DNA of 64,000 nucleotides from an uncultured Candidatus Saccharibacteria bacterium (GTDB lineage: Bacteria > Patescibacteriota > Minisyncoccia > Phycocordibacterales > UBA2100), in the NCBI GenBank assembly GCA_964437185.1, contig CAYTFU010000003.1, positions 26,409-90,408 of the forward strand, written 5' to 3'. How positions within the stretch are numbered: the stretch's first letter is position 1; every line of letters starts with the position of its first letter. This document shows positions 7,341-24,840 of the stretch, piece by piece. The translations under genes were made by a program, and so were the position numbers. The notes below the pieces were generated by a model. The model was given only the letters and a program-made list of their open reading frames with translations, did no database searches and had not been told where the DNA came from.

Positions 7341-10300
7341 TTAGTTGTCCTGATGCGCCTGTTGGTTGCCCATGTTGATGAAGAGTGGCCCGACTGTGTT
7401 GAGGACAACTTTGTCATCCTTATCCCGAATAATCATGTAAGCCTGATCTTCGCCTCCCGGCTCACCAGCGTCATTGAACATGAATTGAATGGTGGCATCC
7501 TCTACTCCATTGAAGCGTCCAGTGCCCACTCCCGTGATCGTGTCGAATTCGGCATTCGGCATTCTTGGGTCAATCTCAGGATCATCTGTACACTGTGCGC
7601 TATTAAGCGTCAGCAAGTGGAATTTCTGCGCTTTCTTGCCGTTTATGCCCCAGTTGACCTCGAGGCGATTCGGTCCGCGACTTACGTCACAGTGAAGGGT
7701 AAAGCCATGTGTCACACGCGTCTCTTTTGCAGATCGGCCTGTAACTCCGCTCAACACGACACCAGTCTCAAGTGTGTTAGGAAACACACTCCCGCCACCG
7801 GTGAAGTGACCCGGTGTGTCGTTGTTGGTGAGCGTACAGGTCATGTTTTCGCCAAGCGCGACAGTCGTATCGCCGTTTACATCACAATCTCCACTAAACC
7901 CTTCGAAGATATAGCCGGGGAGCTGTGTCTCTCCTGCGGTGTATGTACCTGGATTTACAGGAACCGCTACTCCAGAAGAAACTGGAGACCCTTCAAGCGT
8001 GAGATTGAAGTCATTAGGGTTCGCAATTCCACCGTTGCCATTATCAACCACCTTTACCACGGTAATGTACGCCTGCTGGTCGTCATTGGTGATGGTGCAA
8101 GTGACGGTCTCGCCGAGGCCAATCGATACCGTGCCGTCATTGTCGCCATTGGTGCACGACCACGAAGAAGCAGCGTAGCCAGTAGGACCGGCCGATTCAG
8201 AGAGAACATAAGAGCCGGCATCGAAAGACGCACCACTCGAAACATCAGGAGAGCCTGCCGCGCCCGGGCCAGTGATTGAGGTCGGCCCAGTTGCCGTGAG
8301 GGTCCACGCTGATTCGAGAGCCGTGCCGCCGCTGTTGTTCACAACTACTTTGTTGAGGTGAAGTACGGGCGCGATGTCATCGTTGGTAATCGTACAAGTG
8401 ACATTGTCTCCCGCCCCGAGCGTGACGGTATCGCCATCGTCCTGCGTCACACCAACGCATACCCAGTCAGAAGCAGCGTAGCCGAGAGGGCCGCCACTTT
8501 CGGAGAGGTCGTACGAACCAATCGGAACAATCGCGCTCGTGATGGAGAGATCCCCTTCTTCGCCCGATATTGTGGTCTGGTCGTTGTCTGTCGCTTCAAT
8601 CGTCCAGTCGGTATCAACCGCCGTACCACCATTGTCTATCACCACTTCCTTTTCAAGCGTAAGTGTCGGAAGTTTGGTGTTCGTGAAGGTGCAGGTGACT
8701 GTTTCTCCAGCGGCAAGGTTGATCGAGGAAGGATCGGATGCGTCATCGCACGTCGCAGATGTGAGATCCCAGCCAGCTGGTACCGTCTCAGATACTGAGT
8801 AGGTGCCAGCGTCAATATCACCAGAGTCATTCGATCCGCCATTTGCGAGTACGAATCCATCCTGGTCATAGGAAGCGGCGAAGTCGAAGTTGCCGTCGCC
8901 ACCAACAGTCACTTTGTTAACAATTATTTTGCTGTCCTTCGTGTTGGTGAAGGTGCACGTGACATTCTCACCCGCCGCGACGTTGAAGGTTGCGACGCCT
9001 GTGCCGATATTGCCAGAACTATTGCTGTCGTCGCACGTAATGTCAGTGAGGTCCCAGCCTGAAGTCACAGTCTCGGTTGAGTCATAGGTACCCGGGATGA
9101 CCTCCTGCGTCGCAGTATCATTGTCGTTCAAGATGCCAGAGACATCACCGGTGAAGGTGAAGTCAGCATCGCCGCCAATGGTCTGCTTCTCGATGGTAAT
9201 CGAGCCGTGCTTCGTATTTGTGAAGACACAGGTGACTGTCTCACCCGCCGTGAGGTCGATAGTGGCTGCACTTTCGATGCCCTCGATTGAACTTGTGCAG
9301 ACCGTCGACGTGAGGTCCCATCCCGCAAGCTCAGTCTCCGCGACAGAGTACGTCCCCGGATTGAGGTCGCCCGAGTCGTCTTGCTGGCCATCGGAAATAT
9401 CCGCGTCTCCGCTGCCATACGAGAGATCGAAGTCGAAGACCGCAAGATCGCCATCGGGTATTGTCTGCTTCTCGACGATAATATTGGCATCCTTTTGATT
9501 CGTAAATGTACAGGTGATGGTTTCCCCCGCGTCGAGGTCAAGATCTTGTCCATCAGTATCTACAGGGTCACCGAGCGAGCTCGCGCAGCTAATCGATGTG
9601 TTGTCCCAACCAGCTTCCGCTGCTTCCGTGACATCGTAGACACCAGGAGCGAGGTCGCCAGAGTTGTTTGCGGTGGAACCGTCAGCGAGAACAAACGGCA
9701 AGCCGTAGTCAGTGGTGAAGCCGAACTCGGTGAGGTCGCCTGCAGGATCAGTCACCTTGTCGACGATGATAAACGCATCGGCTTCGTTGGTGAACGTACA
9801 CGTGATCTCCTCACCAGCGTTCGGAGTAATCTGGTTTACAGGATCTCCATTGCTGCATGTCGCACTCAAGAGATCCCATCCTGCTGGCACTGGAGTTTCT
9901 GCCATCGTGTAGGTGTTGTCTGGGTCGAGATCACTAAATACTTGTGAAGCTGTATTTGCGACCGTCGTCAATTGCGCACTCGAAGGAAGGCCAGCGCCCG
10001 TCATTACGAAGTCAAACGTGCCATTCCCACCGATTGTATTTTTTACAAGCGTGATCTTTGCAAGCTTCTCGTTTGTGAATGTGCACGTAACAGTTTCACC
10101 TGGCTCAACATCTATACTATTAATTGCCTCACCCTTGTCACATGTCGCGCTCTCCTGTTGCCAACCCGCAATAGCTGCTTCTGAGACCGTGTACGATCCG
10201 GGAACGACTTCGAAATCTCTTTGTTTCGGCAAGGCATTCCCTATATCCCCGTCGTCATCGAGAAGAAATGCACCAATGCTACCGCTCCCCGTAAAGGAGA

Positions 10301-13232
10301 AATCTTGCGTGCTGTTTGGTATTGCATTCTTGATAATTACGACATGACCACGCTTTGTGTTCGTGAATGTACACGTGACTGTTTCGCCAGCGCCAACATC
10401 AATATCCCCCACCGTTTCGCCCTGATCGCAGGTAGCCGAAGCCTGATCCCATCCGGCCGGAATCGTTTCTGTAACATTGTACTTGCCTGGAATTACAGAC
10501 TGACTGTTTGGTGCTGCAGCATCCGTAAGCGAAAAACTGACGTAACCAGCTCCTCCGGCAGTAAAGCTAAAGCTCTGAGTATCGCCGCTAGGATTGGTTA
10601 CTTTATCGACGATGATTGTGCCGTTTTGAGTATTGGTGAAGGTACAAGTGACGGTCTCCCCAGCTTGTAGTGAAATATTATTCACTGCACTACCGTCACT
10701 ACAGCTCGTATTCGTCAGGTTCCATCCGGCCGGAATGTTGACCTCCGATACTGAATACGTGCCTGGCGCAAGTATGCCGCTGTCACTGGCCGCAGCGGCG
10801 TCCGTAAGGTTGAAGTTGCTAACGCTCCACGAAGGGTCAAATTCAAATGATTGGTTCGAGCCCGAAGGATCAGTCACCTTGTCGATTAGAATCTTACCCT
10901 GCTTCGTATTAGTGAACGTACAGGTCACGTGCTCGCCTGCGCCGACAGTGATGGACTGTATGGTTTCGTCGAGGTCACAAGTTGCAGACGTGAGATCCCA
11001 GCCTGTAGGAACCGATTCTGTGATGTTGTACTCACCAGGTACGAAGTTATTAACGGTCTGACTTGCGGTACCACCTGAAGTGGTGAGCTGTGTAACGCCT
11101 GTGCTTCCAGTAAAGTCGAATGTGCCGTCACCACCAATTGTGTTCTTCACGATAGTGATTGAGCCGCGCCTCGTGTTGGTGAAGGTGCAAGTAATAGTTT
11201 CTCCCGCATCGAGCTCAAGGGTGCCTATAGTTTCAGTGTCTCCTATTGAGCTCACGCACGTGGCGGATGTGAGATCCCATCCCGTTGGAACAGTTTCAGA
11301 GATCGAATAAATGCCAGCATTTAGTGACTGACTGTTCGGTTGCGCAGCGTCCGTAAGAGAGAAGCCATTGTACCCAGTGCCACCCGCAGTAAAGCTGAAG
11401 CTTTGCGCGTCCGCAGCTGGGACGGTTACTTTATCGACAATAATCGTACCTTGCTGGAGAGTATTCGTGAATGTGCAAGTCACCGATTCGCTTGCAGCAA
11501 GATTGATAGTAGCGGTTCGAGTATTGAGGTCAACTGTTGAATTTGTAGTCGGATCAACGCACACAAGGTTTGTGAGGCTATACCCCGCCGCAGATGCCTC
11601 TGACACCGTGTATGCTCCCGGCGCTAACGCTGAGAATACCCGTGTGTTTGGAAGCGACCCATCGCCATCGTCGTCAAGCGAGAAATTCGTTAGGCCTGCG
11701 CCAGTTGTGGTAAAAGCAAAATCCTGTGAATCATTGGGCACAGTATCTTTAATGATTGTGATGGTCGCGTTATTTGGGATAAGAATATCTGCTCCTTTTA
11801 TCTGATTGTCTTGTGAGCCGCCCGTGCCGTCGAACTTAACCGTCTTGATGTGGTATGGGCCACCGCTAATCTGAGACGAACCGAGCCCAGGGCCCCAACT
11901 CACACCCGTCCCATCGCCTGTTACAGCTAGGTGCCCGCCGAAGAATAGCAAAATGTCGCAACCGTCCGCCGCGCTACACCCTGAAGTCGTGAACGGAATT
12001 GTTACGGTAACGACCGAGTCGCCTGTGTCACCATTCGCGGCCACGTCGTGCGCAAGAGTTATCGCACCTGGAGTAATAGTCCCTCCGTCGATGTAAATCG
12101 AGATATTACGAGGAGCTCCAAAATCCGCCATATAGGCATTCTCCTTGTTAGTCTGAGCTGCTGAGGAGCCATCCTTACTATCGAACGGATCGTTTGGAAT
12201 AGGTACAAGATGGTCAGGGGCGCTTCCTGAGGGATTTAGGTTCGTACATGCAGCTGCGTCTGCCCCCGCAAGATCCGAACAAGCGTTCAAAGTTGGAGTT
12301 CCAGGCGCAAACGATCCATTACCCTGTGCGCCCCCAGTGTTTGGATTCACAGTCGTCAAAAAGTCGTACGCGTGAATGCCGGCCTTCGTGTACTGATACG
12401 TGAACGTAATGCTGTGGGCCCCGTCCACAACTTTCGCGTCACGAAAGAGCAGCCTTTGAGGAACGGTCATTCCCTCGTAATAAATTGAGTTTGATTGCTG
12501 GACAATCGAGCCGATCCAATTGCACTCTCCCGCCGTAGGATTATTGTTCGAGCATTGGGTAAAGCTCGTTTGCAGTGGGTCTATAACACTGGTTGTGGCC
12601 AATACTGCACCATCCCCGTCCTCAGCAGAAATAGTATAAAGAGGAGTAAAAAGATCGGACAAAACGTAGTTATACGTAAACACACCTGTCTCATCAGTCA
12701 CGATGTTAAATACTTCCGTGGAATAAATTTCTGAAGGGTTGAGAAGTGATCCACCTACAATTCTCAGAACAATATTCTGTATTGCAGTAAAAAACCTTCC
12801 AAAAATAGAGACGGTTTCCTCAGGATTATATTCGGCCTTTTCTGTCGAGAGCTCGGGTGAAGGGGTCGAGGCTGCTACGGCAGCGCTTTGATCGGTAGAA
12901 TCGTTGGAGGATGATTCCGTGGTAGTCGTGGTAGAAGTGTCTTCTGGTGCGTCAACAGGAGCGTCTGTCTGCTCGGAGGTTGTCGAATCCGTACTCCCTT
13001 CACTCGCCGTAGAATCTTCCGCAACGGTATCTGCAGGTGCGTCTGCTGTCGCATCACTACTAGCGGTCGTCTCTGTAGAAGTGTCCGCAGGAGATTCGGT
13101 CGCGGCTACCGTAGTGTCCGTTAGCTCCTCGGCATACGAAACGGAATGTAAAAAAAGCATCATAAAACCCATCGATGAAAAAAGCATCAACGCTGCGATG
13201 GTCTTGCGCACATTTATTGTTGAGAGAGTCAT
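7341..13232 (-). CDS. Giant secreted surface protein (1963 aa) with an acidic S/T-rich linker and 14 tandem ~95-aa prealbumin/SpaA-like repeats, each with a conserved Cys pair
   Basis: Signal peptide MTLSTINVRKTIAALMLFSSMGF...; 14 repeats ending in the motif [VIM]TC[TV][FIL]TN across about 7650-11600; no internal stops. Confidence 0.75.
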   Translation of the reverse strand: MTLSTINVRKTIAALMLFSSMGFMMLFLHSVSYAEELTDTTVAATESPADTSTETTASSDATADAPADTVAEDSTASEGSTDSTTSEQTDAPVDAPEDTSTTTTTESSSNDSTDQSAAVAASTPSPELSTEKAEYNPEETVSIFGRFFTAIQNIVLRIVGGSLLNPSEIYSTEVFNIVTDETGVFTYNYVLSDLFTPLYTISAEDGDGAVLATTSVIDPLQTSFTQCSNNNPTAGECNWIGSIVQQSNSIYYEGMTVPQRLLFRDAKVVDGAHSITFTYQYTKAGIHAYDFLTTVNPNTGGAQGNGSFAPGTPTLNACSDLAGADAAACTNLNPSGSAPDHLVPIPNDPFDSKDGSSAAQTNKENAYMADFGAPRNISIYIDGGTITPGAITLAHDVAANGDTGDSVVTVTIPFTTSGCSAADGCDILLFFGGHLAVTGDGTGVSWGPGLGSSQISGGPYHIKTVKFDGTGGSQDNQIKGADILIPNNATITIIKDTVPNDSQDFAFTTTGAGLTNFSLDDDGDGSLPNTRVFSALAPGAYTVSEASAAGYSLTNLVCVDPTTNSTVDLNTRTATINLAASESVTCTFTNTLQQGTIIVDKVTVPAADAQSFSFTAGGTGYNGFSLTDAAQPNSQSLNAGIYSISETVPTGWDLTSATCVSSIGDTETIGTLELDAGETITCTFTNTRRGSITIVKNTIGGDGTFDFTGSTGVTQLTTSGGTASQTVNNFVPGEYNITESVPTGWDLTSATCDLDETIQSITVGAGEHVTCTFTNTKQGKILIDKVTDPSGSNQSFEFDPSWSVSNFNLTDAAAASDSGILAPGTYSVSEVNIPAGWNLTNTSCSDGSAVNNISLQAGETVTCTFTNTQNGTIIVDKVTNPSGDTQSFSFTAGGAGYVSFSLTDAAAPNSQSVIPGKYNVTETIPAGWDQASATCDQGETVGDIDVGAGETVTCTFTNTKRGHVVIIKNAIPNSTQDFSFTGSGSIGAFLLDDDGDIGNALPKQRDFEVVPGSYTVSEAAIAGWQQESATCDKGEAINSIDVEPGETVTCTFTNEKLAKITLVKNTIGGNGTFDFVMTGAGLPSSAQLTTVANTASQVFSDLDPDNTYTMAETPVPAGWDLLSATCSNGDPVNQITPNAGEEITCTFTNEADAFIIVDKVTDPAGDLTEFGFTTDYGLPFVLADGSTANNSGDLAPGVYDVTEAAEAGWDNTSISCASSLGDPVDTDGQDLDLDAGETITCTFTNQKDANIIVEKQTIPDGDLAVFDFDLSYGSGDADISDGQQDDSGDLNPGTYSVAETELAGWDLTSTVCTSSIEGIESAATIDLTAGETVTCVFTNTKHGSITIEKQTIGGDADFTFTGDVSGILNDNDTATQEVIPGTYDSTETVTSGWDLTDITCDDSNSSGNIGTGVATFNVAAGENVTCTFTNTKDSKIIVNKVTVGGDGNFDFAASYDQDGFVLANGGSNDSGDIDAGTYSVSETVPAGWDLTSATCDDASDPSSINLAAGETVTCTFTNTKLPTLTLEKEVVIDNGGTAVDTDWTIEATDNDQTTISGEEGDLSITSAIVPIGSYDLSESGGPLGYAASDWVCVGVTQDDGDTVTLGAGDNVTCTITNDDIAPVLHLNKVVVNNSGGTALESAWTLTATGPTSITGPGAAGSPDVSSGASFDAGSYVLSESAGPTGYAASSWSCTNGDNDGTVSIGLGETVTCTITNDDQQAYITVVKVVDNGNGGIANPNDFNLTLEGSPVSSGVAVPVNPGTYTAGETQLPGYIFEGFSGDCDVNGDTTVALGENMTCTLTNNDTPGHFTGGGSVFPNTLETGVVLSGVTGRSAKETRVTHGFTLHCDVSRGPNRLEVNWGINGKKAQKFHLLTLNSAQCTDDPEIDPRMPNAEFDTITGVGTGRFNGVEDATIQFMFNDAGEPGGEDQAYMIIRDKDDKVVLNTVGPLFINMGNQQAHQDN

Positions 13233-13446: not shown

Positions 13447-13722
13447 CTATGCTGCGGTCGGTGTTGCGCTTCCGACGGAGACGGGGATACCACCTTTTAT
13501 GTTCGTTTGTAGTTTAGCGAGAAATTCTCGCTGCGACGAAACATCGAGGATCTCAACGCCGACGACATCTCCCTTGGCATCAAAATCTACAACAAACGTA
13601 TCGGAATTCTTATGAGTACGGGCAACCTTCTCATCTGTCATTTTGAGGTACACAGCGTCGGCCAGCATGTCGTATTTTATGTCCATAATTTTATAAATTA
13701 TCTGGATAATATGCTGTGACAA
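13447..13722 (-). CDS. DUF2283-family protein (antitoxin partner of DUF4258)
   Basis: MDIKYDMLADAVYLKMTD... matches the DUF2283 N-terminal signature; overlaps the upstream DUF4258 gene by 32 nt. Confidence 0.65.
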   Translation of the reverse strand: MSQHIIQIIYKIMDIKYDMLADAVYLKMTDEKVARTHKNSDTFVVDFDAKGDVVGVEILDVSSQREFLAKLQTNIKGGIPVSVGSATPTAA

Positions 13723-13948
13723 TTACGTACTCCACATCTTTCTTGGTTCCCCATTTGAAGTATATAACCTCTATTACCCTCGCGTCATCAACCTTCTTTC
13801 GGACCAGTACTCTACCTTCAAAAGCGTGCTTTGTAAAGTCTGGCGAACTGATCGCTCGCTTGATGTGATCAACATCAATGCCTCGTTCCACCAATCGGCT
13901 CTGAAAATGCGCGGTGAAGCGAAGTCTCATAGTAATAGTAAGCGACAA
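13691..13948 (-). CDS. DUF4258-family protein (putative toxin of the DUF4258/DUF2283 pair)
   Basis: 85 aa, HFQSRLVERGIDVDHIKRAI...; the conserved pairing with DUF2283 is established knowledge. Confidence 0.6.
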   Translation of the reverse strand: MSLTITMRLRFTAHFQSRLVERGIDVDHIKRAISSPDFTKHAFEGRVLVRKKVDDARVIEVIYFKWGTKKDVEYVIVTAYYPDNL

Positions 13949-14260: not shown

Positions 14261-14803
14261 ATGAAAACGCATATAGCGGTTTTGGTAGGGATTATCAGTG
14301 TTATGTCTCCGGGCCTTGCGTTTGCCAACCTCTTAAACGCAGGCGTGGGGGTAAACGGAAATGTTGAGAGCAATCTCGAACTAGAGGTGGAGGAGCGCGA
14401 TCGCGAGGCAAATGAGGTGAGTGCCACCGCAAAGCTCGGGATTGGAGCGAGCACATCTGCGAGTGCGCGGGAAGATGCTCGAGATGATCGTGCAACTTCA
14501 AGTCGTGGCAATTCGGATGAAGCGGGCGATACTGCCCCGAACGCAACGAGCTCCGAGCACCGCAAAGATGGCGAAAACGCGTCCGGTGAGGATGGTCGCG
14601 GATTCGGCAAGGGCGGGCTCGTCGGGTTCTTTCGCTGGATATTCGGCCTCCCCGATGACACAACTGTCGGAGAGATCCGCACAGAGCTTCAGGCTACAAC
14701 GACCCTTTCGACAAGCTCAGGGCAGGCCGTGAGCACGGATTCGTCCTCGCAAGGTTTGGGATTCTGGGCTCGAATCTTTGGATTCCTCTCGCTGGGTAAT
14801 TAA
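14261..14803 (+). CDS. Secreted low-complexity acidic/Ser-rich protein (hypothetical)
   Basis: Signal peptide MKTHIAVLVGIISVMSPGLAFA; only + strand gene in the island; followed by a terminator. Confidence 0.5.
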   Translation: MKTHIAVLVGIISVMSPGLAFANLLNAGVGVNGNVESNLELEVEERDREANEVSATAKLGIGASTSASAREDARDDRATSSRGNSDEAGDTAPNATSSEHRKDGENASGEDGRGFGKGGLVGFFRWIFGLPDDTTVGEIRTELQATTTLSTSSGQAVSTDSSSQGLGFWARIFGFLSLGN

Positions 14804-14996: not shown

Positions 14997-15398
14997 CTAG
15001 AGAATTGACCTCACCCGCTGACGAATCTCCTCATAGGTGTTTTTAGGTATTCGGCCCATCTTGACGAGCAACCGCTTTGAATCGAGTAGGCGCACCTGCG
15101 AAAGCAAAGCTGTGCTCTCGCCGCCAAGAAACGCAAAAGTGTAATGGTATTTACCATCGCGTTTCGCTGTGGTGAGCGGTATTCCAACAAATACATTCTT
15201 ACTGTACTTTTTTAGCACGAGTACTGGCCGAGCAAACTTCTCCCCCTTGCCATCTTGCTCGAAACCAATGTTGACACCAATGGCACACCACCATACCTCG
15301 CGTTCGTAAAAATAAAGATTAAACTCACTTTTACTGGTAGATTTTTTTCGCTCGTTCCACGTATCGAAATCCTTTTTCATTTCGCACAATGTTGTCAC
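14997..15398 (-). CDS. PemK/MazF-family toxin (orphan, no adjacent antitoxin ORF)
   Basis: EVWWCAIGVNIGFEQDGKGEKFARPVLVLKK....VGIPLTT matches the MazF/PemK signature (GEVWWVDLG..GSEQ.G.RP.LV...VIVAPLTT). Confidence 0.6.
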   Translation of the reverse strand: MTTLCEMKKDFDTWNERKKSTSKSEFNLYFYEREVWWCAIGVNIGFEQDGKGEKFARPVLVLKKYSKNVFVGIPLTTAKRDGKYHYTFAFLGGESTALLSQVRLLDSKRLLVKMGRIPKNTYEEIRQRVRSIL

Positions 15399-15420: not shown

Positions 15421-15453
15421 CAAGGGTAACCCTTTCAGAAAGGGTTACCCTTG
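15421..15453. repeat. REP family 1 doublet
   Basis: CAAGGGTAACCCTT at 15421-15434 and AAAGGGTTACCCTTG at 15439-15453. Confidence 0.85.
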
Positions 15454-15466
15454 CGGTTATAAACCG

Positions 15467-16183
15467 CTAGCGGTTGCCACGGCGAGGGGCGCCGATGACG
15501 CTTACCGTGCCATTTGCGAGGCGGATGTCGACGGTGCTCACGTTGTCGAGCTCGTCGGTCTCGAAAATGTGACCCTTCGGATCGATCTCTATCTTGAGAC
15601 GATAATCGCCGTCCGGAAGCCCTGTGATGTCGATAGACTGGCCGTCGAGTTGGTAGCCGTAGGTGTCACCCCAACCCACCGACATGCCCTGCACCTGATC
15701 TCCGCAGGAACTATAGACCGCTTGCTTCGGCGCTCCTGGGAGCTTGGTATTCATGCGCGTAGTGTCCATCACGCAGAATGTCATCTTGCTACCTACGCGA
15801 TTTTCTTGACCGTTTGCGGTAATCGGCTGGAGCGTGTACGCCGCATAATCGTCGAAGTGGAAATGATTGTGCGCTACGTGCCACGTAAAGGTGCCCGCCT
15901 TATATTCCGTATTCGTTCCGTCGTCATTGTAAACGCGCTGGAAGACATCTTGACCGTTGCTGATCACATCCCCTGCAAAAAGTTCTAGCGGCCCCGCGCC
16001 ATTGTTCCACGCCGTCGTGCTAAAGCGGAGAGACGTGCCCACAAGTGTGTTTTCAAGTCGAATATTGCTCGCCGGAAGTGCTTTTAGATTGGGCACGAGC
16101 TGCGACGCGGCGTGAAGATGCCCGCCAAACATCACAACCAACCCCGCCACAGAAAGCGCGGAGTATGCAATGGTGTTTTTCAT
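15467..16183 (-). CDS. Secreted lysyl oxidase-like copper amine oxidase (LOX catalytic domain homolog)
   Basis: Signal peptide. WHVAHNHFH matches the LOX copper site WHSCHQHYH. SKMTFCVMDT aligns with GHKASFCLEDT (LTQ Lys). GDTYGYQLDGQSIDITG aligns with YDTYGADIDCQWIDITD (LTQ Tyr). C-terminal DYRLKIEIDP...ETDELDNV matches NYILKVSVNP...ESDYTNNV. Confidence 0.75.
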   Translation of the reverse strand: MKNTIAYSALSVAGLVVMFGGHLHAASQLVPNLKALPASNIRLENTLVGTSLRFSTTAWNNGAGPLELFAGDVISNGQDVFQRVYNDDGTNTEYKAGTFTWHVAHNHFHFDDYAAYTLQPITANGQENRVGSKMTFCVMDTTRMNTKLPGAPKQAVYSSCGDQVQGMSVGWGDTYGYQLDGQSIDITGLPDGDYRLKIEIDPKGHIFETDELDNVSTVDIRLANGTVSVIGAPRRGNR

Positions 16184-16189
16184 ACGCGG

Positions 16190-16972
16190 TTATTCGCGGT
16201 GGTTGCGCGCGCGGTCCTCAGCCCAGTACACGTGTCGGAGGGTGCGCTCGCCGTGACCCAAATCCTGCTCAAAAATGGAGACGCGGCCATTGGACGATCG
16301 GTAAATCTCTTTACCCCACGCTTTCGGATCGTTGGAATCTGTATCCGCTCCGGACGATGCAGTGGACTGAGCAATCGTCGTCGAGCCATCGAGATGCGAA
16401 TAGATTGCTGCGAGCTGATCGTAATCATGGTGATTCGGCTTGGTGCTGTTCGGGCTGCTCGAGTAGTCCATACAGGTGCTCTGCGACGATCCGTCTTCGC
16501 TCGTATGGCCAAGACCGAACAAGTGCCCAACTTCCTGACACATGACGTGCAACTTCTCATCTGGGTTGTTGTATTGCGGAAGATTGAAATAGCTGTCGTT
16601 CATCTTGGCCGTACCCTTCGTGATATGCGAACCGTTAATCCATATCTGCGCGAGTCCTATCCAGCCATTGTATCCATACTTACGGTTACAGACCTCGATG
16701 CGGCCAGTCGTCGCCTTGCAGTTACTACCTCCTTGCCCAGTTACTACGACAGTGTCGAGAACGCTCGATGCGCTCCAGTCTGCTGATGCGGTAGCGAGAT
16801 ACGAATCCCACGTGCTACTTACATTGTCTCCCATCTTTATCGTAAACGGATTGGCTGTACGAGCCCAGTGATAACTCCCCCACGCGTGACTGGCGAAGAC
16901 CGTGGTCGCGCCAAGGAGCACTACAACGCCGAGTGCCGCGACGGAAATGCCTGCCTTTGTGATCTTATTCAT
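16190..16972 (-). CDS. Secreted zinc metalloprotease, metzincin (snapalysin/M7-like)
   Basis: Signal peptide; HEVGHLFGLGH (HExxHxxGxxH) followed by Met-turn CMDY; 6-nt gap to the downstream LOX-like gene. Confidence 0.7.
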   Translation of the reverse strand: MNKITKAGISVAALGVVVLLGATTVFASHAWGSYHWARTANPFTIKMGDNVSSTWDSYLATASADWSASSVLDTVVVTGQGGSNCKATTGRIEVCNRKYGYNGWIGLAQIWINGSHITKGTAKMNDSYFNLPQYNNPDEKLHVMCQEVGHLFGLGHTSEDGSSQSTCMDYSSSPNSTKPNHHDYDQLAAIYSHLDGSTTIAQSTASSGADTDSNDPKAWGKEIYRSSNGRVSIFEQDLGHGERTLRHVYWAEDRARNHRE

Positions 16973-17063
16973 AATAGTATGAGTGTTTAGGTTAATGTCT
17001 AAATGGTACGGTGCATTTCTGCACTCGTCAAGGTCCGCCGCTGCATATCCAAAAAAGGCTTTA

Positions 17064-17438
17064 TTATTGCGCTAAATTTCGTGTAAGAAACAGGATACGT
17101 TTTGCGAGCACATACGCGCCAAGCGGATCTGACGATTCTGTGGCGTACGCAGGCCAACCTTCCACTGCCTTCTCAAGCCCCAAATTTTCAAACGCCTCTT
17201 TTAAATACTGAAGGGAGCGCGCGTCGTTTTCCGGCGGGAGCGCGCCTGTAGAAAGATATGGTCGAAAATCTTTGCGGCGATCGAGTGCTGCCTGCTCATT
17301 TGGCAGGTCCGAAAGGAGCGCGCGTGCCCAATCAATCGCCTTTTGCTGCTCTGGGGTCGCCCGAGGTTTTCCATCTTTCTGCGAAGCACCCGCCGGTGAT
17401 TCAGATTCTGAATTGCTCATCGGCCAAGTATACCGCAC
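17064..17438 (-). CDS. Hypothetical protein
   Basis: 124-aa ORF abutting the upstream CAP gene stop (17439); no recognised motif. Confidence 0.35.
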   Translation of the reverse strand: MRYTWPMSNSESESPAGASQKDGKPRATPEQQKAIDWARALLSDLPNEQAALDRRKDFRPYLSTGALPPENDARSLQYLKEAFENLGLEKAVEGWPAYATESSDPLGAYVLAKRILFLTRNLAQ

Positions 17439-18593
17439 TTACGGAAGCGCGGCAGCCGCGCTCGCCATCGTGGCTTGCGGCGTGACGAGGGTGGGCAAAA
17501 AGACAAACGAATCCGCAGCCACAAGCACAGCAAGGATAAACGAGAGCATCACACCCGCGGCAACCGCCTTGCGCGTGTGATGAAGTCGGATTTCCCACTC
17601 CGTGGCAACTCCGAGAGCAATCACAATGAGAATCGCGAGGGTCCAATACAGGTACTGCATCATGCTGCGCGGCGACGCGGCGATGTGCGCCCAAATAGAT
17701 GCGTAGTTGGGCGTGGAACCCGCGACGACCGTGACGGGTGGCGCCACTTTGCTCGGCTTCACCGCTTCGGGTGCGGGTGCAGGAACTTCCTCCGCTGCTG
17801 TCCCAAGTACTTCAACCTCTTTCTCCACTCCCCCCTGCGCGATCACCCGATCTTCGGATGTCTCTGGCGCGGGCTCTTGCTCTGCGACCGGCACAGGCGT
17901 CACCTCTCCCAGGACCGATGGAGCAGAAGTCGCGAGAGCGATTTCGCTTGGGCTTTCAGGTATCGAGACGCCTGCGAGCGCTCGCTGCACGCCCGACGAA
18001 GATGGGGTGCCGAAAACCTGGGCCACAAATGTCGTGCGACGTCCCCGGTAGGTACCTTCCGCGATCGCAATGCCGATTTCTGTAAACTTGGGATTCAAAA
18101 TGTTTTCGCGGTGAGTGGGAGAATTCATCCACGCGCGCTCGACGTCGCTCGATTCAGAAAAGTCGACCGCGAGATTCTCGCCCGCGTAGTCAAACGCATA
18201 CCCTTCCTGTGTAAACCAATGCCACGGATCAATTCCTTCGGGAGAAATGTGCGCGAAATAGCTCTTTGCCGCCATGTCGTTGGCCTTGGCCTGCGCGACT
18301 GCTGTAAGGGCGGGGCTCAATGTAAGCGCGGTGAGGCTGTTTTGCGTACGATCACCATTGGTCAGATCCACAAGGACGGTGGCAAGCACCGACGCGTACT
18401 GCTGAGACGTAATGAAGTAGCGATCGACGGATGACCCGATAAAAATCGAGACGACGAGTGCCGAAACAATCGCCACGCCCGCGCCGCCAAAAAGCTCCGC
18501 TTCTTTACGCCCTTTTTTGCTCCGAGGCAGGAGGGATCGCAACATCGATCGCCGCGCAAGCGCGTTTTTCTTCGGCTCTTTCTTGCGCACCAT
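17439..18593 (-). CDS. Membrane-anchored CAP/SCP/PR-1 domain protein
   Basis: N-terminal basic region and TM; CAP signature ...ERAWMNSPTHRENILNPKFTEIGIAIA...; Pro/Glu-rich linker; C-terminal TM. Confidence 0.65.
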   Translation of the reverse strand: MVRKKEPKKNALARRSMLRSLLPRSKKGRKEAELFGGAGVAIVSALVVSIFIGSSVDRYFITSQQYASVLATVLVDLTNGDRTQNSLTALTLSPALTAVAQAKANDMAAKSYFAHISPEGIDPWHWFTQEGYAFDYAGENLAVDFSESSDVERAWMNSPTHRENILNPKFTEIGIAIAEGTYRGRRTTFVAQVFGTPSSSGVQRALAGVSIPESPSEIALATSAPSVLGEVTPVPVAEQEPAPETSEDRVIAQGGVEKEVEVLGTAAEEVPAPAPEAVKPSKVAPPVTVVAGSTPNYASIWAHIAASPRSMMQYLYWTLAILIVIALGVATEWEIRLHHTRKAVAAGVMLSFILAVLVAADSFVFLPTLVTPQATMASAAAALP

Positions 18594-18721: not shown

Positions 18722-21700
18722 CTAGGGCAACGGCGGCAATGGAATATTCAAGCTTGAGCACTTGAGCATGTTGATCCAGCGTTTGGTCGTCTTGTAGACG
18801 TAGCCGGTCGTCTCGCCCTGCTTCAAGAGTCCGCGATCAACCCATGGCTTCAAGACGCCGTCGTTCTCACTTGCCTGGAAGTCTCGCACTGCCTTGTCGG
18901 TCATTGGGCCAAAGACGCCGGTGATCGGGAGCGAAATCTTCATCTGCTCATTGAGGAACGTCTGGAGCTTCTTCACTTCCTCCGGATCGTTCTTCGTGCT
19001 GATGCGGAGGTAATCGCGCAGGAACGGAGCGCACGATGCGCCGAGCACCTGACCAGTCGATGTACCGAGCACCTGGCCCGGACCGAAAGTCGGATTACCG
19101 AAGTCGGTTCCCCCACCGCCTGTTGTCCTTGGAGGTGTAGGTGTAGTTACGACCGGCGTGTTTACCTTTATAACTACGCTCCCGTCGTCATTTGCATCGT
19201 TGGTTTCGGCATTCTCGTGAGACGAAACCGCGGTGTTCGTCACTTCAGTACCGGCGGATGCCGTTACCGTAGCGACAATCTGAAGTGATGTCGTTGCGTT
19301 TGCGGCGAGAGATCCGATAGTCCATACGCCGGTCGAAGTAGCGTAATCACCCTCTCCATTGTCGGAAACGTACGTCAAGCCAGAAGGAAGGTTATCAGTT
19401 ACGGAGACTCCCGACGCAGTAGCTGGGCCGCTGTTGGATACGGTGATGGTGAACGTTACATTCTGTCCGTTATCCGGCGTTGCGTCATCTACCTCTTTTG
19501 TCACTGCGATATCCGAACCTGTCGGAATGATCGTGTTGACGAAGGTACAAGTAATGTCATCTCCCGCGATGAGATTGCTAAAGCCCGCAAACGAACCGTC
19601 ATAATTGACCGCCGCATCAGATTCAAGCGGAGAGTCGATCACACACACCAAGCTTGTGAAGTCCCACCCTTGTGCCTGGTTCTCGCTCACGGAACTAGAG
19701 CCATCGATATCGAGAGCTACCGTTTCAGAGCCGGCTCCTCCTTCGGTCGTGATCTCAACATCAGTCTCCATACCTTGCACATTGAACGTGAACGTGCCGT
19801 TTCCACCGACCGTATTCTTCACGATCGTGAGTGTCGGGATGAAAGGGGCACAATCCGCGTCTTCAAGATCCACGCCGCCGCCTTGGCTACCGTCGTCGTT
19901 GTCGTTGTCAATGCCATCGGAGCATTCCGCGAGTGTGTTTTCTGTAAGCGGATTTACGGTGATCGATACGGTTGACTCATTGCTGTCGACAGAGCTGTCG
20001 TTTGCCTTGAAGGTAAACGAATCCGATCCACTGAAGTTGAGATTCGGCGTGTAGGTGAACTGGCCCGTGCCTACGTTGAGGAATGTAATGCTGCCATTTG
20101 AGGGATTGCTCGTGGTGGCAAACGTAAGTGGATCGCCATCTACATCGGTCGCACCGAGGACGCCGGGGACTGCGATGTTTTGATCGGTCGTGATGGATTG
20201 ACCCGTCGAGACAGGCGCGTCGTTCACTGGATTAACGGTAATGGTTACGGTTACCGATCCGCTTAGGCCGCTATTTGTGTCGTTAACGTGATACGTGAAC
20301 GAGTCAGAACCATTGAAGTTTGCGTCTGGCGCGTAATCGAAACTACCGTCGCCGCTTAGTGTAAGAATCCCGTTCGAAACATCGGTATCAAGAACCGCCG
20401 TCATCGTATCCCCGTCGGCATCCGTGTCGTTTCCGAGTACGCCCGGGGCGGCAATCGAAAGTGTCGCATCTTCGTTGACGGAATAGGCATCGGCAACAGC
20501 ATTTGGCGCATCGTTGGTGTTGCTTACGGTCACGTTGACCGTCGCAGTATCAGTGCCACCGTTATCGTCGGATATCGTGTACGTGAAGCTGTCGGAGCCT
20601 ACGTATCCGGCGTTTGGAGTGTATTTTACAGACCCTGCATCAAGAGTAGCGGTGCCGTTTGAAGCCGACCCAACACTCTGCACCGTGAGAGTTTCTGCCG
20701 TATCGGGTGAAATTAAGTCGTTCGCAAGGACATCGATGACGTTGTCGACTGAATCTTCGTTTACGTTTGCCGAGTCATTTACTGCATCGGGATCATCGTT
20801 GACTGGCGTAACGGTGATAGAGAACGATCCACTGTTGCTTCCGATAAGATCGGCTACAGAAAAGGTGAATCCATCTGGACCATTGTAGTTGAGAGCTGGA
20901 GTGTAGCTGAAAGTACCATTCGAGTTGAGCGTGAACGCTGCGGAGTTTGTCGGCCCCGTAACGATCGCGTACGTAAGCACATCGCCCTCCGCATCAATGG
21001 CAGTAACAGCACCCGAAAAGCCGACGTCCTCTGGCGTCGTGCTCGCCTGGTCGCTCACGGGGGTTGGGAATGTATTGAAGTACGTGTTGGTAACGACACA
21101 CGTGACCGTGGTGCCTGATACTACCGTAACGGTACCGCCTGGAGCACAATCGTCACCAAACGATGTCGTGTAGTGTGCGTTCGCTGGCTCACTCACCGTA
21201 TAAGAACCTGCAGTCAGCGTGTACTCAGTACCGGTCTCGGAACCTGCCGCTGGAGATCCTGTGACGTCCACACCGCCCTGCTTCACGCTGATCGGGAACT
21301 GGTCGGCAGTCGCTGTTCCACCTCCCGTGATTACTACATTCTTAATAACAGAAAGCGTCCCTGGAACAACATTAAACTCATCGTCGTCGGTCAATCCTGA
21401 ACAACCAGGATCGGCAGGGTAGTCGATCAGCCCATCGCCATCATTATCAACGCCGTCATCGCATTGATATACAACCTCGACTGTTTGAATAAATGTGGAA
21501 AGCCCACCCTCATTACCTGCCTGATTCGCATGATGGATGCTGACTCGAATGGTGTAACTGCCGGGAGCAGAGTAGGTGTGGGAAGTAGACCATGGAGTAT
21601 CCGCAATAATTCCATTGTTTGAATTGTTTGTGAAGTTTAGATCGGTCTCGTCCATAAATACGACCCAGGCCGAAGGATCGCCCCAGTCGACAGAAATGTA

Positions 21701-21931
21701 CTGCTGATTCGCTGGGCCCGTAAAAGTATTCGCAGAAGCAATGCCACTTGCCGTCACATTGAGACCGTTCAAAGTAAGCGATCCTGATATTACGTAGTTT
21801 GCAGCTGCGTGTGCCGTGTTCGGAGCAAGCGCTACGCCCGCAAACGACATCGATATCATGCTTAGAGTTACGAAAACAGATCCCGCCTTGTCGAGAAAGG
21901 ACCCCTTGTGCGCGAAGACATTAATATTCAT
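18722..21931 (-). CDS. Large secreted adhesin-like protein (1069 aa): prealbumin-like domains, cadherin-like/VCBS repeats, DUF11 repeat, C-terminal peptidoglycan-binding domain
   Basis: Signal peptide; TVTCVVTNT and ITCTFVNT Cys-pair domains; repeated VNDDP/TNDAP/VNDAP modules; VTKEVDDATPDNGQNVTFTITVSNSG...VSVTDNLPSGLTYVS (DUF11); C-terminal KKLQTFLNEQ...GVFGPMTDKAVRDFQ. Confidence 0.7.
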   Translation of the reverse strand: MNINVFAHKGSFLDKAGSVFVTLSMISMSFAGVALAPNTAHAAANYVISGSLTLNGLNVTASGIASANTFTGPANQQYISVDWGDPSAWVVFMDETDLNFTNNSNNGIIADTPWSTSHTYSAPGSYTIRVSIHHANQAGNEGGLSTFIQTVEVVYQCDDGVDNDGDGLIDYPADPGCSGLTDDDEFNVVPGTLSVIKNVVITGGGTATADQFPISVKQGGVDVTGSPAAGSETGTEYTLTAGSYTVSEPANAHYTTSFGDDCAPGGTVTVVSGTTVTCVVTNTYFNTFPTPVSDQASTTPEDVGFSGAVTAIDAEGDVLTYAIVTGPTNSAAFTLNSNGTFSYTPALNYNGPDGFTFSVADLIGSNSGSFSITVTPVNDDPDAVNDSANVNEDSVDNVIDVLANDLISPDTAETLTVQSVGSASNGTATLDAGSVKYTPNAGYVGSDSFTYTISDDNGGTDTATVNVTVSNTNDAPNAVADAYSVNEDATLSIAAPGVLGNDTDADGDTMTAVLDTDVSNGILTLSGDGSFDYAPDANFNGSDSFTYHVNDTNSGLSGSVTVTITVNPVNDAPVSTGQSITTDQNIAVPGVLGATDVDGDPLTFATTSNPSNGSITFLNVGTGQFTYTPNLNFSGSDSFTFKANDSSVDSNESTVSITVNPLTENTLAECSDGIDNDNDDGSQGGGVDLEDADCAPFIPTLTIVKNTVGGNGTFTFNVQGMETDVEITTEGGAGSETVALDIDGSSSVSENQAQGWDFTSLVCVIDSPLESDAAVNYDGSFAGFSNLIAGDDITCTFVNTIIPTGSDIAVTKEVDDATPDNGQNVTFTITVSNSGPATASGVSVTDNLPSGLTYVSDNGEGDYATSTGVWTIGSLAANATTSLQIVATVTASAGTEVTNTAVSSHENAETNDANDDGSVVIKVNTPVVTTPTPPRTTGGGGTDFGNPTFGPGQVLGTSTGQVLGASCAPFLRDYLRISTKNDPEEVKKLQTFLNEQMKISLPITGVFGPMTDKAVRDFQASENDGVLKPWVDRGLLKQGETTGYVYKTTKRWINMLKCSSLNIPLPPLP

Positions 21932-22206: not shown

Positions 22207-22860
22207 TTACTCGAGCAGGGCGATTTCCATTTTCCAAGAAATATCTTTTATGAAGCGCTGTGTTTTTGATACGACACCACCGTATGCCTCCTCGAATAAT
22301 TCTCTGTTCAGAATCGACGGGAAATTTACCTGTCCCGAATAGTCAGGAAAACTGCTCCAGCGATATGTCCGTAGAAATGCCATGGCCTTTCTTTCACTTG
22401 CGATTCCGCCCTCGCGCCAGCCTTTAGCCCCTTCGAGAAAGTCGAGGGGATTGAGATGAATGTAATGCAGGATGTGCAAAAAATGCGCTTCGCGCTCGAT
22501 CAGTACCTTCTTGGTGCGTCCCTGAAACAGCGCTCCCTCGCGTTCATGAAGTTCGTTGTAATAGTTGGCATACCCAACATTGAGCTTGCGAATAAATTTT
22601 GTTAGTCCTCCGTCCTCTATTTCGGATACGAGTAAATGGTAATGATTTTTCATAAGACACCACCCGTGTAAATCAATCAGCCGCTTTCGCTTCGCCAACG
22701 TGGGGTTTCGTAAATCCCACGTCTTTCGTCTATATGCGTCTGGCGCAGGCCGAATATCATTGAATTCGTATATGTCTCGCACAAAGCGAGCGCAGTGCGC
22801 ATCGTCATCAAAAATTGTTCGCTTATCTACACCCCTATTGAGTACATGATACAGCTCCAC
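22207..22860 (-). CDS. REP-associated tyrosine transposase (RAYT-2; IS200/IS605 TnpA Y1 family) carrying an internal REP-2 copy
   Basis: YHVLNRG, HUH motif WCLMKNHYHLL, YIHLNPLDF; internal palindrome at 22698-22724 encodes ...TWDLRNPTLA... in frame. Confidence 0.75.
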   Translation of the reverse strand: MELYHVLNRGVDKRTIFDDDAHCARFVRDIYEFNDIRPAPDAYRRKTWDLRNPTLAKRKRLIDLHGWCLMKNHYHLLVSEIEDGGLTKFIRKLNVGYANYYNELHEREGALFQGRTKKVLIEREAHFLHILHYIHLNPLDFLEGAKGWREGGIASERKAMAFLRTYRWSSFPDYSGQVNFPSILNRELFEEAYGGVVSKTQRFIKDISWKMEIALLE

Positions 22861-24100: not shown

Positions 24101-24101
24101 A

Positions 24102-24836: not shown

Positions 24837-24840
24837 GTAG

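Follow-up and report, generated by a model that had tools for sequence, protein, structure and literature searches.

The window analysed here, a 64,000-nucleotide stretch of DNA from an uncultured Candidatus Saccharibacteria bacterium, carries a short lysyl oxidase (LOX) gene directly behind a gene for a metzincin-fold protein whose first zinc-binding histidine is replaced by glutamine (QExxH). We favor, with a probability of roughly 0.6, the reading that the two genes are a unit, in a patescibacterium of the Candidatus Kaiserbacteria type, encoding two Sec-secreted enzymes, a minimal LOX and a QExxH metzincin-fold hydrolase, whose functions are probably coupled. What the analysis shows is to which family and fold the proteins belong, which residues are conserved, how the genes are arranged and that the pair recurs. 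Neither the recurring LOX-QExxH partnership nor the unusual, possibly copper-linked metal site of the partner protein was known before. The native role of prokaryotic LOX is still called enigmatic, and in Patescibacteria the enzyme now gains a genomic partner and giant-adhesin neighbours that recur across loci and provide concrete, testable substrates and partners. Coordinates of all features are collected in Table 1.

Table 1. Features of the LOX-QExxH region, in window coordinates
Feature	Position	Strand	Basis or remark
Minimal LOX gene, secreted, 238 aa	15467..16183	-	Signal peptide aa 1 to ~25, then LOX catalytic domain only
Copper-site motif W101-H102-V-A-H105-N-H107-F-H109	15857..15883	-	Aligned to WHDCHRHYH of LOXL2
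Lys133, predicted lysine tyrosylquinone (LTQ) lysine, in SKMTFCVMDT (aa 132-141)	15785..15787	-	Aligned to Lys in HKASFCLEDT of LOXL2
Tyr175, predicted LTQ tyrosine, in GWGDTY (DTYG, aa 173-176)	15659..15661	-	Aligned to Tyr in DMYRHD of LOXL2
Spacer, 6 nt, partner stop TAA to LOX start ATG	16184..16189	-	Sequence
Perfect 14-bp hairpin, 15-45 nt 3' of LOX stop	15422..15452	-	RNA fold; candidate terminator or 3' end element
Intergenic region 5' of partner gene, two overlapping sigma-70-like promoter matches (17031-17003, 17001-16974)	16973..17031	-	Position only
Secreted metzincin-fold protein gene, 260 aa, Gln-substituted metal site (partner)	16190..16972	-	Signal peptide aa 1-27
Active-site helix C145-Q146-E147-V-G-H150-L-F-G-L-G-H156	16505..16540	-	Gln at first zinc-binding His position
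Met-turn C167-M168-D169-Y170	16463..16474	-	Invariant in aligned relatives; aligned to ALMY Met-turn of MMP-8
Membrane-anchored CAP/YkwD-domain protein	17439..18593	-	PF00188 E = 9e-18, TIGR02909
Cadherin/Big_9-like secreted surface protein, 1069 aa; candidate substrate	18722..21931	-	Homologues recur near CPR LOX genes
SpaA-like repeat surface protein, 1963 aa; candidate substrate	7341..13232	-	Homologues near CPR LOX

The LOX gene

The first-pass annotation had described the 238-aa protein as a LOX homolog that keeps every catalytic determinant, and both sequence and structure comparison bore this out. In a Pfam profile search the protein scored 69.5 bits with PF01186 (E = 4e-19; gathering cutoff 20.4), far above chance, with the match spanning profile positions 74-201 of 204. 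All of the relatives listed (120/120) carry the same domain. The sole PDB sequence match was the human LOXL2 structure 5ZE3 (phmmer, E = 5e-12), which was also the sole significant match when an AF2 model of the protein (pLDDT 76.3, pTM 0.73) was compared with the PDB by Foldseek (E = 3e-9, probability 1.0, TM 0.55). The model has the LOX catalytic-domain fold, with active-site loops (aa 139-178) of low confidence.

The copper-site region reads TWHVAHNHFH at aa 101-109. H102, H105, H107 and H109 were invariant across 24 aligned LOX relatives and the HxxHxHxH pattern was present in 120/120 of the relatives listed, while the Cys of the family copper motif WxWHxCHxHYH is Ala in this protein. K133 and Y175 were likewise invariant in the 24 aligned relatives, and their motif occurred in 120/120 of those listed. 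The C-terminal block was located as annotated, reading DYRLKIEIDP at aa 193-202, with an ending of "DN" in place of the "NN" originally given for it. By eye, the signal peptide is of the Sec type with cleavage at about A25/A26; in the alignments with LOXL2 and all relatives, the catalytic domain begins with the sequence that follows (QLVPNL...). The mature protein has two Cys only, C137 and C160. The gene product is of a short form (~240 aa) whose C-terminal tail is rich in Gly and Arg. Judged on its sequence, the gene encodes a LOX-family protein that is secreted and keeps every catalytic determinant; by homology it is predicted to contain copper, to form LTQ and to act as a BAPN-sensitive amine oxidase.

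The copper His triad and the LTQ Lys and Tyr align with those of LOXL2, but overall identity is ~20-22% and the window protein lacks SRCR domains and a propeptide. The animal catalytic domain, as in 5ZE3, has ten Cys in five disulfides, compared with the two Cys here. The hallmarks of the animal LOX/LOXL1 pro-enzymes, an N-terminal propeptide that BMP-1/tolloid removes and a five-disulfide domain, are thus both absent.

The notion that a prokaryotic LOX is itself a novelty did not hold. Such proteins were described in 2015 from five phyla of bacteria and two groups of archaea (Grau-Bove et al., PMC4448552), HTU-LOX of Haloterrigena turkmenica has been characterised as an amine oxidase that is active and sensitive to BAPN (Pestov et al. 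2019, PMC6452851), and NCBI names the relatives "lysyl oxidase family protein". The window protein resembles known prokaryotic LOX in consisting of one LOX domain behind a signal peptide, free of accessory domains, in keeping the copper His and LTQ Lys/Tyr, and in its patchy, HGT-like distribution. It differs in its patescibacterial host, which lies outside the five bacterial phyla of 2015, in its length of ~240 aa, where Burkholderiales, Nitrospira and Methylomirabilota commonly have a form of ~340 aa that is extended at the C-terminus by an Ig-like part, and in the recurrent QExxH-metzincin neighbour, a feature unlike other bacterial LOX loci. Our literature search on LOX in CPR/Patescibacteria and on newer bacterial LOX biochemistry returned nothing relevant. 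The exact LOX and partner proteins are present, without a name, in NCBI, ENA and Logan.

The QExxH partner

In the partner, the catalytic domain (about aa 40-195) is followed by a linker rich in Ser/Thr and by a small C-terminal mini-domain of beta-sheet (aa 221-250). Its Sec-type signal peptide, read by eye, is cleaved between VFA and SHAWG, and the mature N-terminus (x-H-S-W-G-x-Y-H-W-A-R) is conserved, as are two Cys pairs; the protein has no recognisable propeptide. It had been annotated as a secreted HExxHxxGxxH metzincin with a Met-turn. Secretion, Met-turn (C-M-D-Y) and the metzincin catalytic-domain fold were all recovered, but the extended motif HExxHxxGxxH/D was not, since the protein reads QEVGHLFGLGH, keeping the Glu, the second His, the Gly and the third His. 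In an hhalign comparison the motif fell on lvaaHEFGHSLGLAH of MMP-8, placing Q146, encoded by CAG at 16535-16537, on the first His of HEFGH.

The glutamine is not a sequence error, because it is invariant, together with E147, H150, G153 and H156, across 23 aligned partner relatives, and it occupies the first-ligand position in 120/120 close matches and 78/80 metagenome loci. Among 150 diverse representatives the site reads CQE in 128 and CHE in 14. The ligand also covaries with the Met-turn: every one of the Gln-site sequences has Met (124/124), whereas the His-site sequences mostly have Leu (11/14; Fisher p = 6e-14, with sequences counted as independent and kinship not formally excluded). This covariation suggests altered metal chemistry.

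Placement of the partner within known peptidase families was less straightforward. All of its Pfam matches were sub-threshold, including the only ones to M10, and there were none to M7 or astacin. At E <= 10, none of 23 partner-family members matched Peptidase_M7 or Peptidase_M11 (gametolysin/VMP), and a PDB sequence search with the family profile returned nothing. No sequence model, then, places the partner in M7, M10 or M12, as the annotation had suggested one might. By structure comparison the closest solved structure was snapalysin (4HX3_A), and the partner was nearer to snapalysin and the MMPs than to astacins. It shares with the snapalysin/MMP-karilysin group (M7/M10A) the active-site helix, the Gly, the third His, a Met-turn followed by Tyr, and secretion, and differs from it in the Gln at the first zinc ligand, the extra conserved N-terminal segment, the two conserved Cys pairs, the C-terminal mini-domain and the lack of a recognisable propeptide. 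The third ligand of snapalysin is Asp, while that of the partner is His156. The label "snapalysin-like" is apt for structural closeness and fails for the HExxHxxGxxD site and for M7 sequence membership. Neither the astacin/BMP-1 (M12A) profile nor its HExxHxxGFxHExxRxDRD motif was found in the partner.

The partner family is very abundant, with >7,000 clusters at 90% identity and 2,627 at 50%, and it represents thousands of proteins that have no Pfam model and whose zinc ligand is systematically Gln, covarying with the Met-turn Met. As part of the favored reading, and with the same probability, we take the partner to be a hydrolase with a metzincin fold, from a large family that is mostly patescibacterial and unclassified, in which the catalytic Glu and Met-turn are intact; its enzymatic activity is predicted. 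It could instead be a catalytically dead pseudo-protease that serves, for instance, in binding or as a scaffold; loss of a canonical zinc ligand and failure of every family model to pass threshold would allow for this. Such a role seems very unlikely to us given the strict purifying selection on the whole site (catalytic Glu, both remaining His, Gly, and the Met and Tyr of the Met-turn), the His/Gln interchange at that single position within the family, and the precedent of an active QExxH enzyme, VMP3 of Volvox carteri (as summarised in PMC7717551).

Recurrence of the pair

Both open reading frames are real. They lie on the same strand 6 nt apart, as annotated, with no terminator-like site between the partner and LOX genes, and at one other locus (L085/L086) the same gene order is seen with an overlap of 8 nt. 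The genes are therefore spaced as one transcription unit, and co-transcription appears likely from this arrangement. Promoter-like sites in a 4-kb scan were found at about the expected number (3 observed, 2.3 expected from shuffles). Downstream of the LOX gene there is a strong hairpin without a U-tract; the RNA fold of the whole 81-nt stretch was -37.2 kcal/mol (z = -5.2 against shuffles).

A survey of LOX neighbourhoods showed that adjacency to the partner recurs in related Patescibacteria. The two genes lie within 3 kb of each other at 6 of 8 distinct patescibacterial LOX loci (the window, L004, L005, L006/80/81, L079/L172 and L085/86) in five arrangements, which include convergent and divergent orientations and a separation of 2.3 kb. 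The remaining two CPR-type LOX loci, L018 and L087, have no partner within the DNA available, and among ~70 non-CPR bacterial LOX loci none has one. Seen from the other side, no LOX was found near the partner gene at any of 80 metagenome loci or at L170, L174 and L176. Most partner genes thus occur without LOX nearby, which argues that the function of the partner does not depend on LOX. In an all-versus-all clustering of the 80 loci, the only conserved neighbours of the partner gene were frames overlapping the gene itself, and neither LOX nor the partner has a paralogue elsewhere in the window. Small unannotated LOX neighbours in L079, L085 and L087 had no Pfam match. The 217-aa proteins near the pair in the window (22207-22860) and in L079 (8660-9313) were considered as a shared neighbour and rejected, being unrelated.

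It has to be asked whether the pairing reflects any functional coupling, or whether the genes merely sit in a variable island of secreted and surface genes, their adjacency being due to shared ancestry of a few related lineages. The abundance of the partner family in Patescibacteria, with most copies lacking LOX, and the richness of the region in secreted proteins and toxin-antitoxin genes are what one would expect in that case. The paired LOX genes also fall mostly in one clade of a crude NJ tree, so independent juxtapositions may be few. Several observations are hard to reconcile with simple shared ancestry. The pair occurs in five different arrangements, and LOX-linked partners are no special subtype, since types with both 10- and 12-residue spacers take part. 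The gene histories are incongruent: pairwise identities of LOX and partner correlated poorly (Spearman 0.35, p = 0.19), and between the window and L079 the partners are 70% identical, the highest value, while the LOX proteins are 58% identical, among the lowest. LOX may be present or absent right beside a syntenic QExxH gene in close relatives. The nearest relative genome (LepA 90%; L176) has a syntenic giant adhesin-CAP-QExxH arrangement, with CAP at 68% identity, and neither LOX nor a LOX remnant. Finally, we estimate, assuming about one partner gene per ~1-Mb genome, that chance proximity within 3 kb would be <1% per locus, as against the 6/8 observed. On balance we hold the absence of coupling to be rather unlikely.

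The annotation had also likened the pair to animal pro-LOX and its activation by BMP-1, and a protease that cleaves pro-LOX to switch it on would account for the adjacency and its recurrence in Patescibacteria. As in the BMP-1/tolloid system, a metzincin-fold protease and a LOX are here encoded or act together extracellularly, and the activity of archaeal HTU-LOX rose on N-terminal truncation (PMC6452851). The analogy is nonetheless unsupported. The catalytic domain of the window LOX starts right after the signal peptide, leaving no propeptide to cleave; the partner resembles snapalysin and MMPs more than astacins and has no astacin motif; and most LOX and partner genes occur unpaired, two LOX genes of the CPR and ~70 from outside it having no such protease neighbour. 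We consider activation of this kind highly improbable.

Possible roles and the copper question

From the conserved residues and the gene arrangement we infer the following on enzymatic activity, substrates and any functional coupling. By homology, the LOX would bind Cu(II) through His105, His107 and His109, its Lys133 and Tyr175 would be self-processed into the LTQ cofactor, and the enzyme would turn primary amines into aldehydes, giving off H2O2 and NH3. Its likeliest substrates would be lysine side chains on extracellular proteins. The partner would be the resident gene and LOX an accessory gene that repeatedly arrived beside it in Patescibacteria, which points to a shared extracellular target or a shared requirement, probably. 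The best candidates for these are the nearby giant SpaA/cadherin-like surface proteins and copper supply. A functional link between LOX and partner, possibly copper-centred, is plausible, and LOX may cross-link surface or partner-cell proteins. Patescibacteria are thought to live attached to host cells.

The surface proteins are a recurrent feature. Homologues of the 1963-aa SpaA-like protein lie within 5 kb of 4 of 7 other CPR LOX loci, compared with 5 of 43 QExxH-only loci. The annotation was right that a CAP-domain protein and giant adhesins lie nearby, and overstated the matter in calling the adhesins Cys-rich; they have regularly spaced Cys pairs in each repeat.

LOX may alternatively act on small free amines (polyamines, amino acids or aminoglycosides), serving nitrogen scavenging, detoxification, or production of H2O2 against host or competitors. 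HTU-LOX, the sole prokaryotic LOX characterised, is relaxed in its specificity and oxidises taurine, glycine, aminoglycosides and polymyxin (PMC6452851), which means that one cannot count on protein lysine being the substrate here, and collagen-type cross-linking was judged unlikely in bacteria (Grau-Bove et al., PMC4448552). HTU-LOX also oxidises lysine-containing polypeptides (PMC6452851), however, and giant surface proteins are enriched beside CPR LOX genes while no amine transporter or aldehyde-handling gene adjoins the pair in the window. A small-amine role is in our judgment on the unlikely side, and we retain extracellular protein lysine as the better candidate within the coupled two-enzyme reading.

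What the two enzymes might share could be copper. The QExxH protein may be a copper-preferring metalloprotease, or an accessory protein that loads copper, tied to secreted cuproenzymes, and the operon would then encode two copper-dependent extracellular proteins. VMP3, a gametolysin-type enzyme of Volvox carteri, is extracellular and has the same change of the first His to Gln in an otherwise complete metzincin motif (a natural QEXXHXXGXXH site); it is an active enzyme with a catalytic preference for copper (Heitzer & Hallmann 2002, as summarised in PMC7717551). The partner has the VMP3-type motif but no detectable relation to Peptidase_M11, so the substitution would probably be convergent. 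The covariation of Gln with the Met-turn Met points in the same direction, as does the genomic neighbourhood, in which the partner gene is found beside three kinds of copper protein. These are LOX at 6 loci, multicopper oxidases at L103 (300 nt away), L111 and L170, and copper-translocating P-type ATPases at L132 (640 nt away), L136 and L170, with TIGR01511 scores of 528-628 bits against a cutoff of 397.

The copper genes are sparse, however: apart from L170, just 4 of the 80 metagenome loci have one near the partner, and the sole control, 0 matches in 182 kb, is not a proper patescibacterial base rate. Support for a copper preference of the partner is circumstantial. Tentatively, and as a possibility short of our favored reading, the QExxH proteins may be a large family of copper-dependent or copper-handling extracellular enzymes, tied to secreted cuproenzymes, in which Gln and an obligatory Met retune the zinc site. 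The operon would then be a module of two cuproenzymes, a copper protease and a copper amine oxidase, that remodels and covalently cross-links giant adhesins or, for an episymbiotic bacterium, the surface of its host cell. Should the site turn out to select copper, for which algal VMP3 is the single precedent, this would be the first case from a bacterium and would shed light on the role of the conserved metzincin Met and on metal selectivity in this fold.

Rfam matches in the window were four tRNAs only.

LOX and its secreted partner

The window encodes, on the same strand and 6 nt apart (TAA ccgcgt ATG), a lysyl oxidase (LOX) family protein and a secreted partner, as the first-pass annotation had proposed, and both exact proteins were found in NCBI, ENA and Logan assemblies, on contigs as long as 250 kb. 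Elsewhere the window holds ordinary housekeeping genes. Its LepA shares 87% identity with named Candidatus Kaiserbacteria sequences, so the host is a Parcubacteria-type Patescibacterium (CPR). The two genes are likely co-transcribed; no terminator-like site was found between them, and a perfect 14-bp hairpin without a U-tract (z = -5.2) follows the LOX stop codon. Two promoter-like matches lie directly upstream of the partner gene, not above shuffle expectation.

LOX-family membership is secure because of profile, alignment, invariant residues and fold, and the original motif-based call held on profile and structural comparison alike. The protein matched PF01186 at 69.5 bits (cutoff 20.4), and human LOXL2 (5ZE3) was the only hit in a PDB sequence search (E = 5e-12). 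In that alignment the copper histidines WHVAHNHFH fall on WHDCHRHYH, the Lys of the lysine tyrosylquinone (LTQ) cofactor in sKMTFCVMDT on hKASFCLEDT, and its Tyr in DTYGYQLD on DMYRHDID. Residues H102, H105, H107, H109, K133, C137, C160 and Y175 are invariant across 24 diverse bacterial relatives, and all three motifs were present in 120 of 120 relatives among the matches listed. An AF2 model (pLDDT 76, pTM 0.73, loops 139-178 of low confidence) had LOXL2 as its sole significant Foldseek match in the PDB (E = 3e-9, probability 1.0). We infer amine oxidase activity by homology. The signal peptide leads immediately into the catalytic domain, with no propeptide or accessory domain. Short (~240 aa) CPR-type LOX proteins share a conserved Gly/Arg-rich C-terminal tail (G-x-G-R-G-N-R; alignment A2), while in the ~340-aa proteins of Burkholderiales, Nitrospira and Methylomirabilota an Ig-like extension of ~100 aa (PF01833 in protein P0099) occupies the C-terminus instead.

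Bacterial LOX is a known kind of protein; NCBI names the relatives "lysyl oxidase family protein". Grau-Bove et al. (2015, PMC4448552) reported LOX from five phyla of bacteria and two groups of archaea, mostly as the LOX domain alone, whether or not a signal peptide precedes it. Pestov et al. (2019, PMC6452851) demonstrated BAPN-sensitive amine oxidase activity of relaxed specificity for an archaeal LOX, whose native role is cryptic. Its description as rare and patchy was fair: scanning one genome per species, we found 75 loci in 185,579 species, an underestimate because exact peptide patterns were used, scattered over Patescibacteria, Burkholderiales, Xanthomonadales, Nitrospira, Chloroflexota, Actinomycetota, Methylomirabilota, Acidobacteriota and Verrucomicrobiota. 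A literature search joining LOX with CPR bacteria found no paper.

A metzincin fold with a Gln-substituted metal site

The partner had been described as an HExxH snapalysin-like metzincin. The fold stands, but the motif had been misread and the family is unclassified. The motif is C-Q-E-V-G-H-L-F-G-L-G-H, and its Gln is a family trait: invariant in 23 aligned relatives and present in 120 of 120 close hits listed and in 78 of 80 metagenome loci. An hhalign comparison aligns the motif exactly with HEFGHSLGLAH of MMP-8, and C-M-D-Y with its ALMY Met-turn. The AF2 model (pLDDT 75.9, pTM 0.74) predicts a metzincin fold, with MMPs, karilysin, astacins and serralysins matched by Foldseek at probability 1.0. 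The profile comparison with M7, M10 and M12 gave nothing above threshold: Pfam matches of the partner were sub-threshold, to metzincin-clan families, with none accepted, and the family gave no M7, astacin or M11 match. The family is large: grouped at 90% identity it has more than 7,188 clusters, and at 50% identity 2,627 representatives (E <= 1e-3). It has no precomputed Pfam domain, and the few sources named for it are Patescibacteria or Peribacteria.

At the first-ligand position, the 150 most diverse representatives included 128 with CQE, 14 with canonical CHE, and one each with AQE and CEE; Gln and His thus interchange at a single position, the behaviour expected of a genuine ligand. The Met-turn Met was present in 124 of 124 scorable Gln-site members, whereas 11 of 14 His-site members had Leu (Fisher p = 6e-14). 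Most nearest relatives of the His-site members are Gln/Met types, so the His-site members do not resemble a single compact clade. The only characterised QExxH precedent found in the literature was Volvox VMP3 (Heitzer & Hallmann 2002), described in PMC7717551 as a copper-preferring extracellular metalloproteinase whose site reads QEXXHXXGXXH.

The family also conserves two pairs of Cys, invariant His at several other positions, a small C-terminal beta-sheet and a mature N-terminus, x-H-S-W-G-x-Y-H-W-A-R. This last segment (aa 26-35) begins right after the predicted signal-peptide cleavage, with no propeptide, and could serve as a short inhibitory or metal-binding element. Some relatives have Glu three residues before its His, mimicking ExxHxxGxxH and giving a false regex match.

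Association of the partner with LOX and possibly with copper genes

The neighbourhood survey placed a partner within 3 kb of LOX in six distinct patescibacterial lineages and five arrangements (see table). No partner was found in the DNA available for CPR-type LOX loci L018 and L087, or near any of about 70 non-CPR LOX loci, and no LOX near the 80 metagenome partner loci (43 with >=3 kb of flank) or at partner loci L170, L174 and L176. LOX-linked partners come from both spacer subtypes, and pairwise identities of LOX and partner correlate poorly: between the window and L079, the partners are 70% identical (closest) and the LOX proteins 58% (among the most distant). The nearest relative genome (L176; LepA 90% identical) has a giant SpaA adhesin, CAP-domain gene (68%) and QExxH gene (60%) in synteny with the window, with LOX absent and no remnant; therefore, the partner is the resident gene and LOX an accessory gene that comes to adjoin it. 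Together these patterns speak for a functional link, tempered by the small sample and by a crude tree in which most paired LOX genes share one clade. The pairing itself is a genuine association, restricted to particular lineages.

As to the nature of the link, the partner had been likened to BMP-1, which activates pro-LOX. This analogy is not supported, because LOX has no propeptide to remove and most LOX genes have no such neighbour. At 4 of 7 other CPR LOX loci, versus 5 of 43 partner-only loci, giant SpaA/cadherin-like surface proteins are encoded within 5 kb; they are therefore candidate LOX substrates. Copper offers another reading. The window partner's closest relative, P0122 (67%), lies in a same-strand cluster ordered copper-translocating P-type ATPase, DUF7282, QExxH, DsbA, multicopper oxidase. 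Among the 80 metagenome loci, a multicopper oxidase lies within 1.5 kb of the partner in L103 (300 nt) and L111, and a copper ATPase in L132 (640 nt) and L136. With LOX, also a copper enzyme, counted in, the copper proteins found repeatedly next to the partner gene are of three kinds. The association with copper genes is no more than suggestive, and a copper-linked partner family is suggested as the most interesting open reading.

Other neighbouring genes

Coordinates and gene arrangements in the window and in retrieved loci (L-numbers)
Feature	Locus	Position	Strand	Remark
LOX ORF	window	15467-16183	-	238 aa
Partner ORF	window	16190-16972	-	260 aa
Partner Gln codon	window	16535-16537		CAG
Partner N-terminal segment	window	16868-16897	-
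LOX C-terminal tail	window	15467-15496	-
Toxin-antitoxin-type genes	window	13447-13948; 14997-15398	-	flank pair
Toxin-antitoxin-type gene	L001	20657-20717
180-aa ORF	window	14261-14803	+
118-124-aa ORF	window	17064-17438	-
Redox cluster	window	22913-25452	-	L001: 777-3271
DUF7282	L101	8861-9382
DUF7282	L109	1159-1680
DUF7282	L165	1661-2188
DUF7282	L152	1691-1894
DUF7282	L170	5461-5973
Multicopper oxidase	L111	4551-6629	+	693 aa
Pilus genes	L174	6847-11866
Pilus genes	L176	17403-20804
Example of a non-CPR LOX locus	L029	3074-3652	+
Partner then LOX	window			6-nt gap
Partner then LOX	L085/86			8-nt overlap
LOX then partner	L004
LOX and partner convergent	L005			Adlerbacteria
LOX and partner divergent	L079, L172/173
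LOX and partner same strand	L006/80/81			2.3 kb apart

A MazF/PemK toxin, with no obvious antitoxin called, lies directly downstream of LOX; a DUF4258 and DUF2283 pair and, farther along, a ParE toxin were also seen. Encoded on the opposite strand, the 180-aa ORF combines a signal-peptide-like N-terminus with low-complexity charged sequence; it had no Pfam match and is called as a gene in 3 of 3 public copies of the locus. The 118-124-aa ORF that separates the CAP gene from the QExxH gene lacks a signal peptide, matches nothing in Pfam or NCBIfam and is without counterpart in the syntenic relative L176.

A membrane-anchored DUF7282 protein (~170 aa) immediately adjoins the QExxH gene in five loci, and the multicopper oxidase of L111, 1.4 kb from its QExxH gene, carries an N-terminal DUF4396 fusion. 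A thioredoxin/DsbD_TM (CcdA-like)/AhpC-TSA-redoxin cluster lies ~6 kb upstream of the pair, and DsbA or DsbB genes recur near QExxH genes (L170, L174, L176, L144, L155), which fits the disulfide-bonded secreted proteins encoded in the window. Two lineages (L174, L176) have type IV pilus genes (T2SSE, T2SSF, N_methyl pilins, LVIVD-repeat protein) immediately following QExxH genes or a few kb from them, and in L080 the same LVIVD/pilin set is found ahead of the SpaA adhesin and LOX.

Recurrent neighbours of non-CPR LOX (L007-L078; Burkholderiales-type and others) differ from those of CPR LOX. At 27 loci there is a small secreted protein of ~150-160 aa, rich in Cys and without a Pfam match (upstream of LOX in 21 of the 27); a LuxR-type response regulator is found at 26 loci and a DsbA-like thioredoxin at 9 or more.
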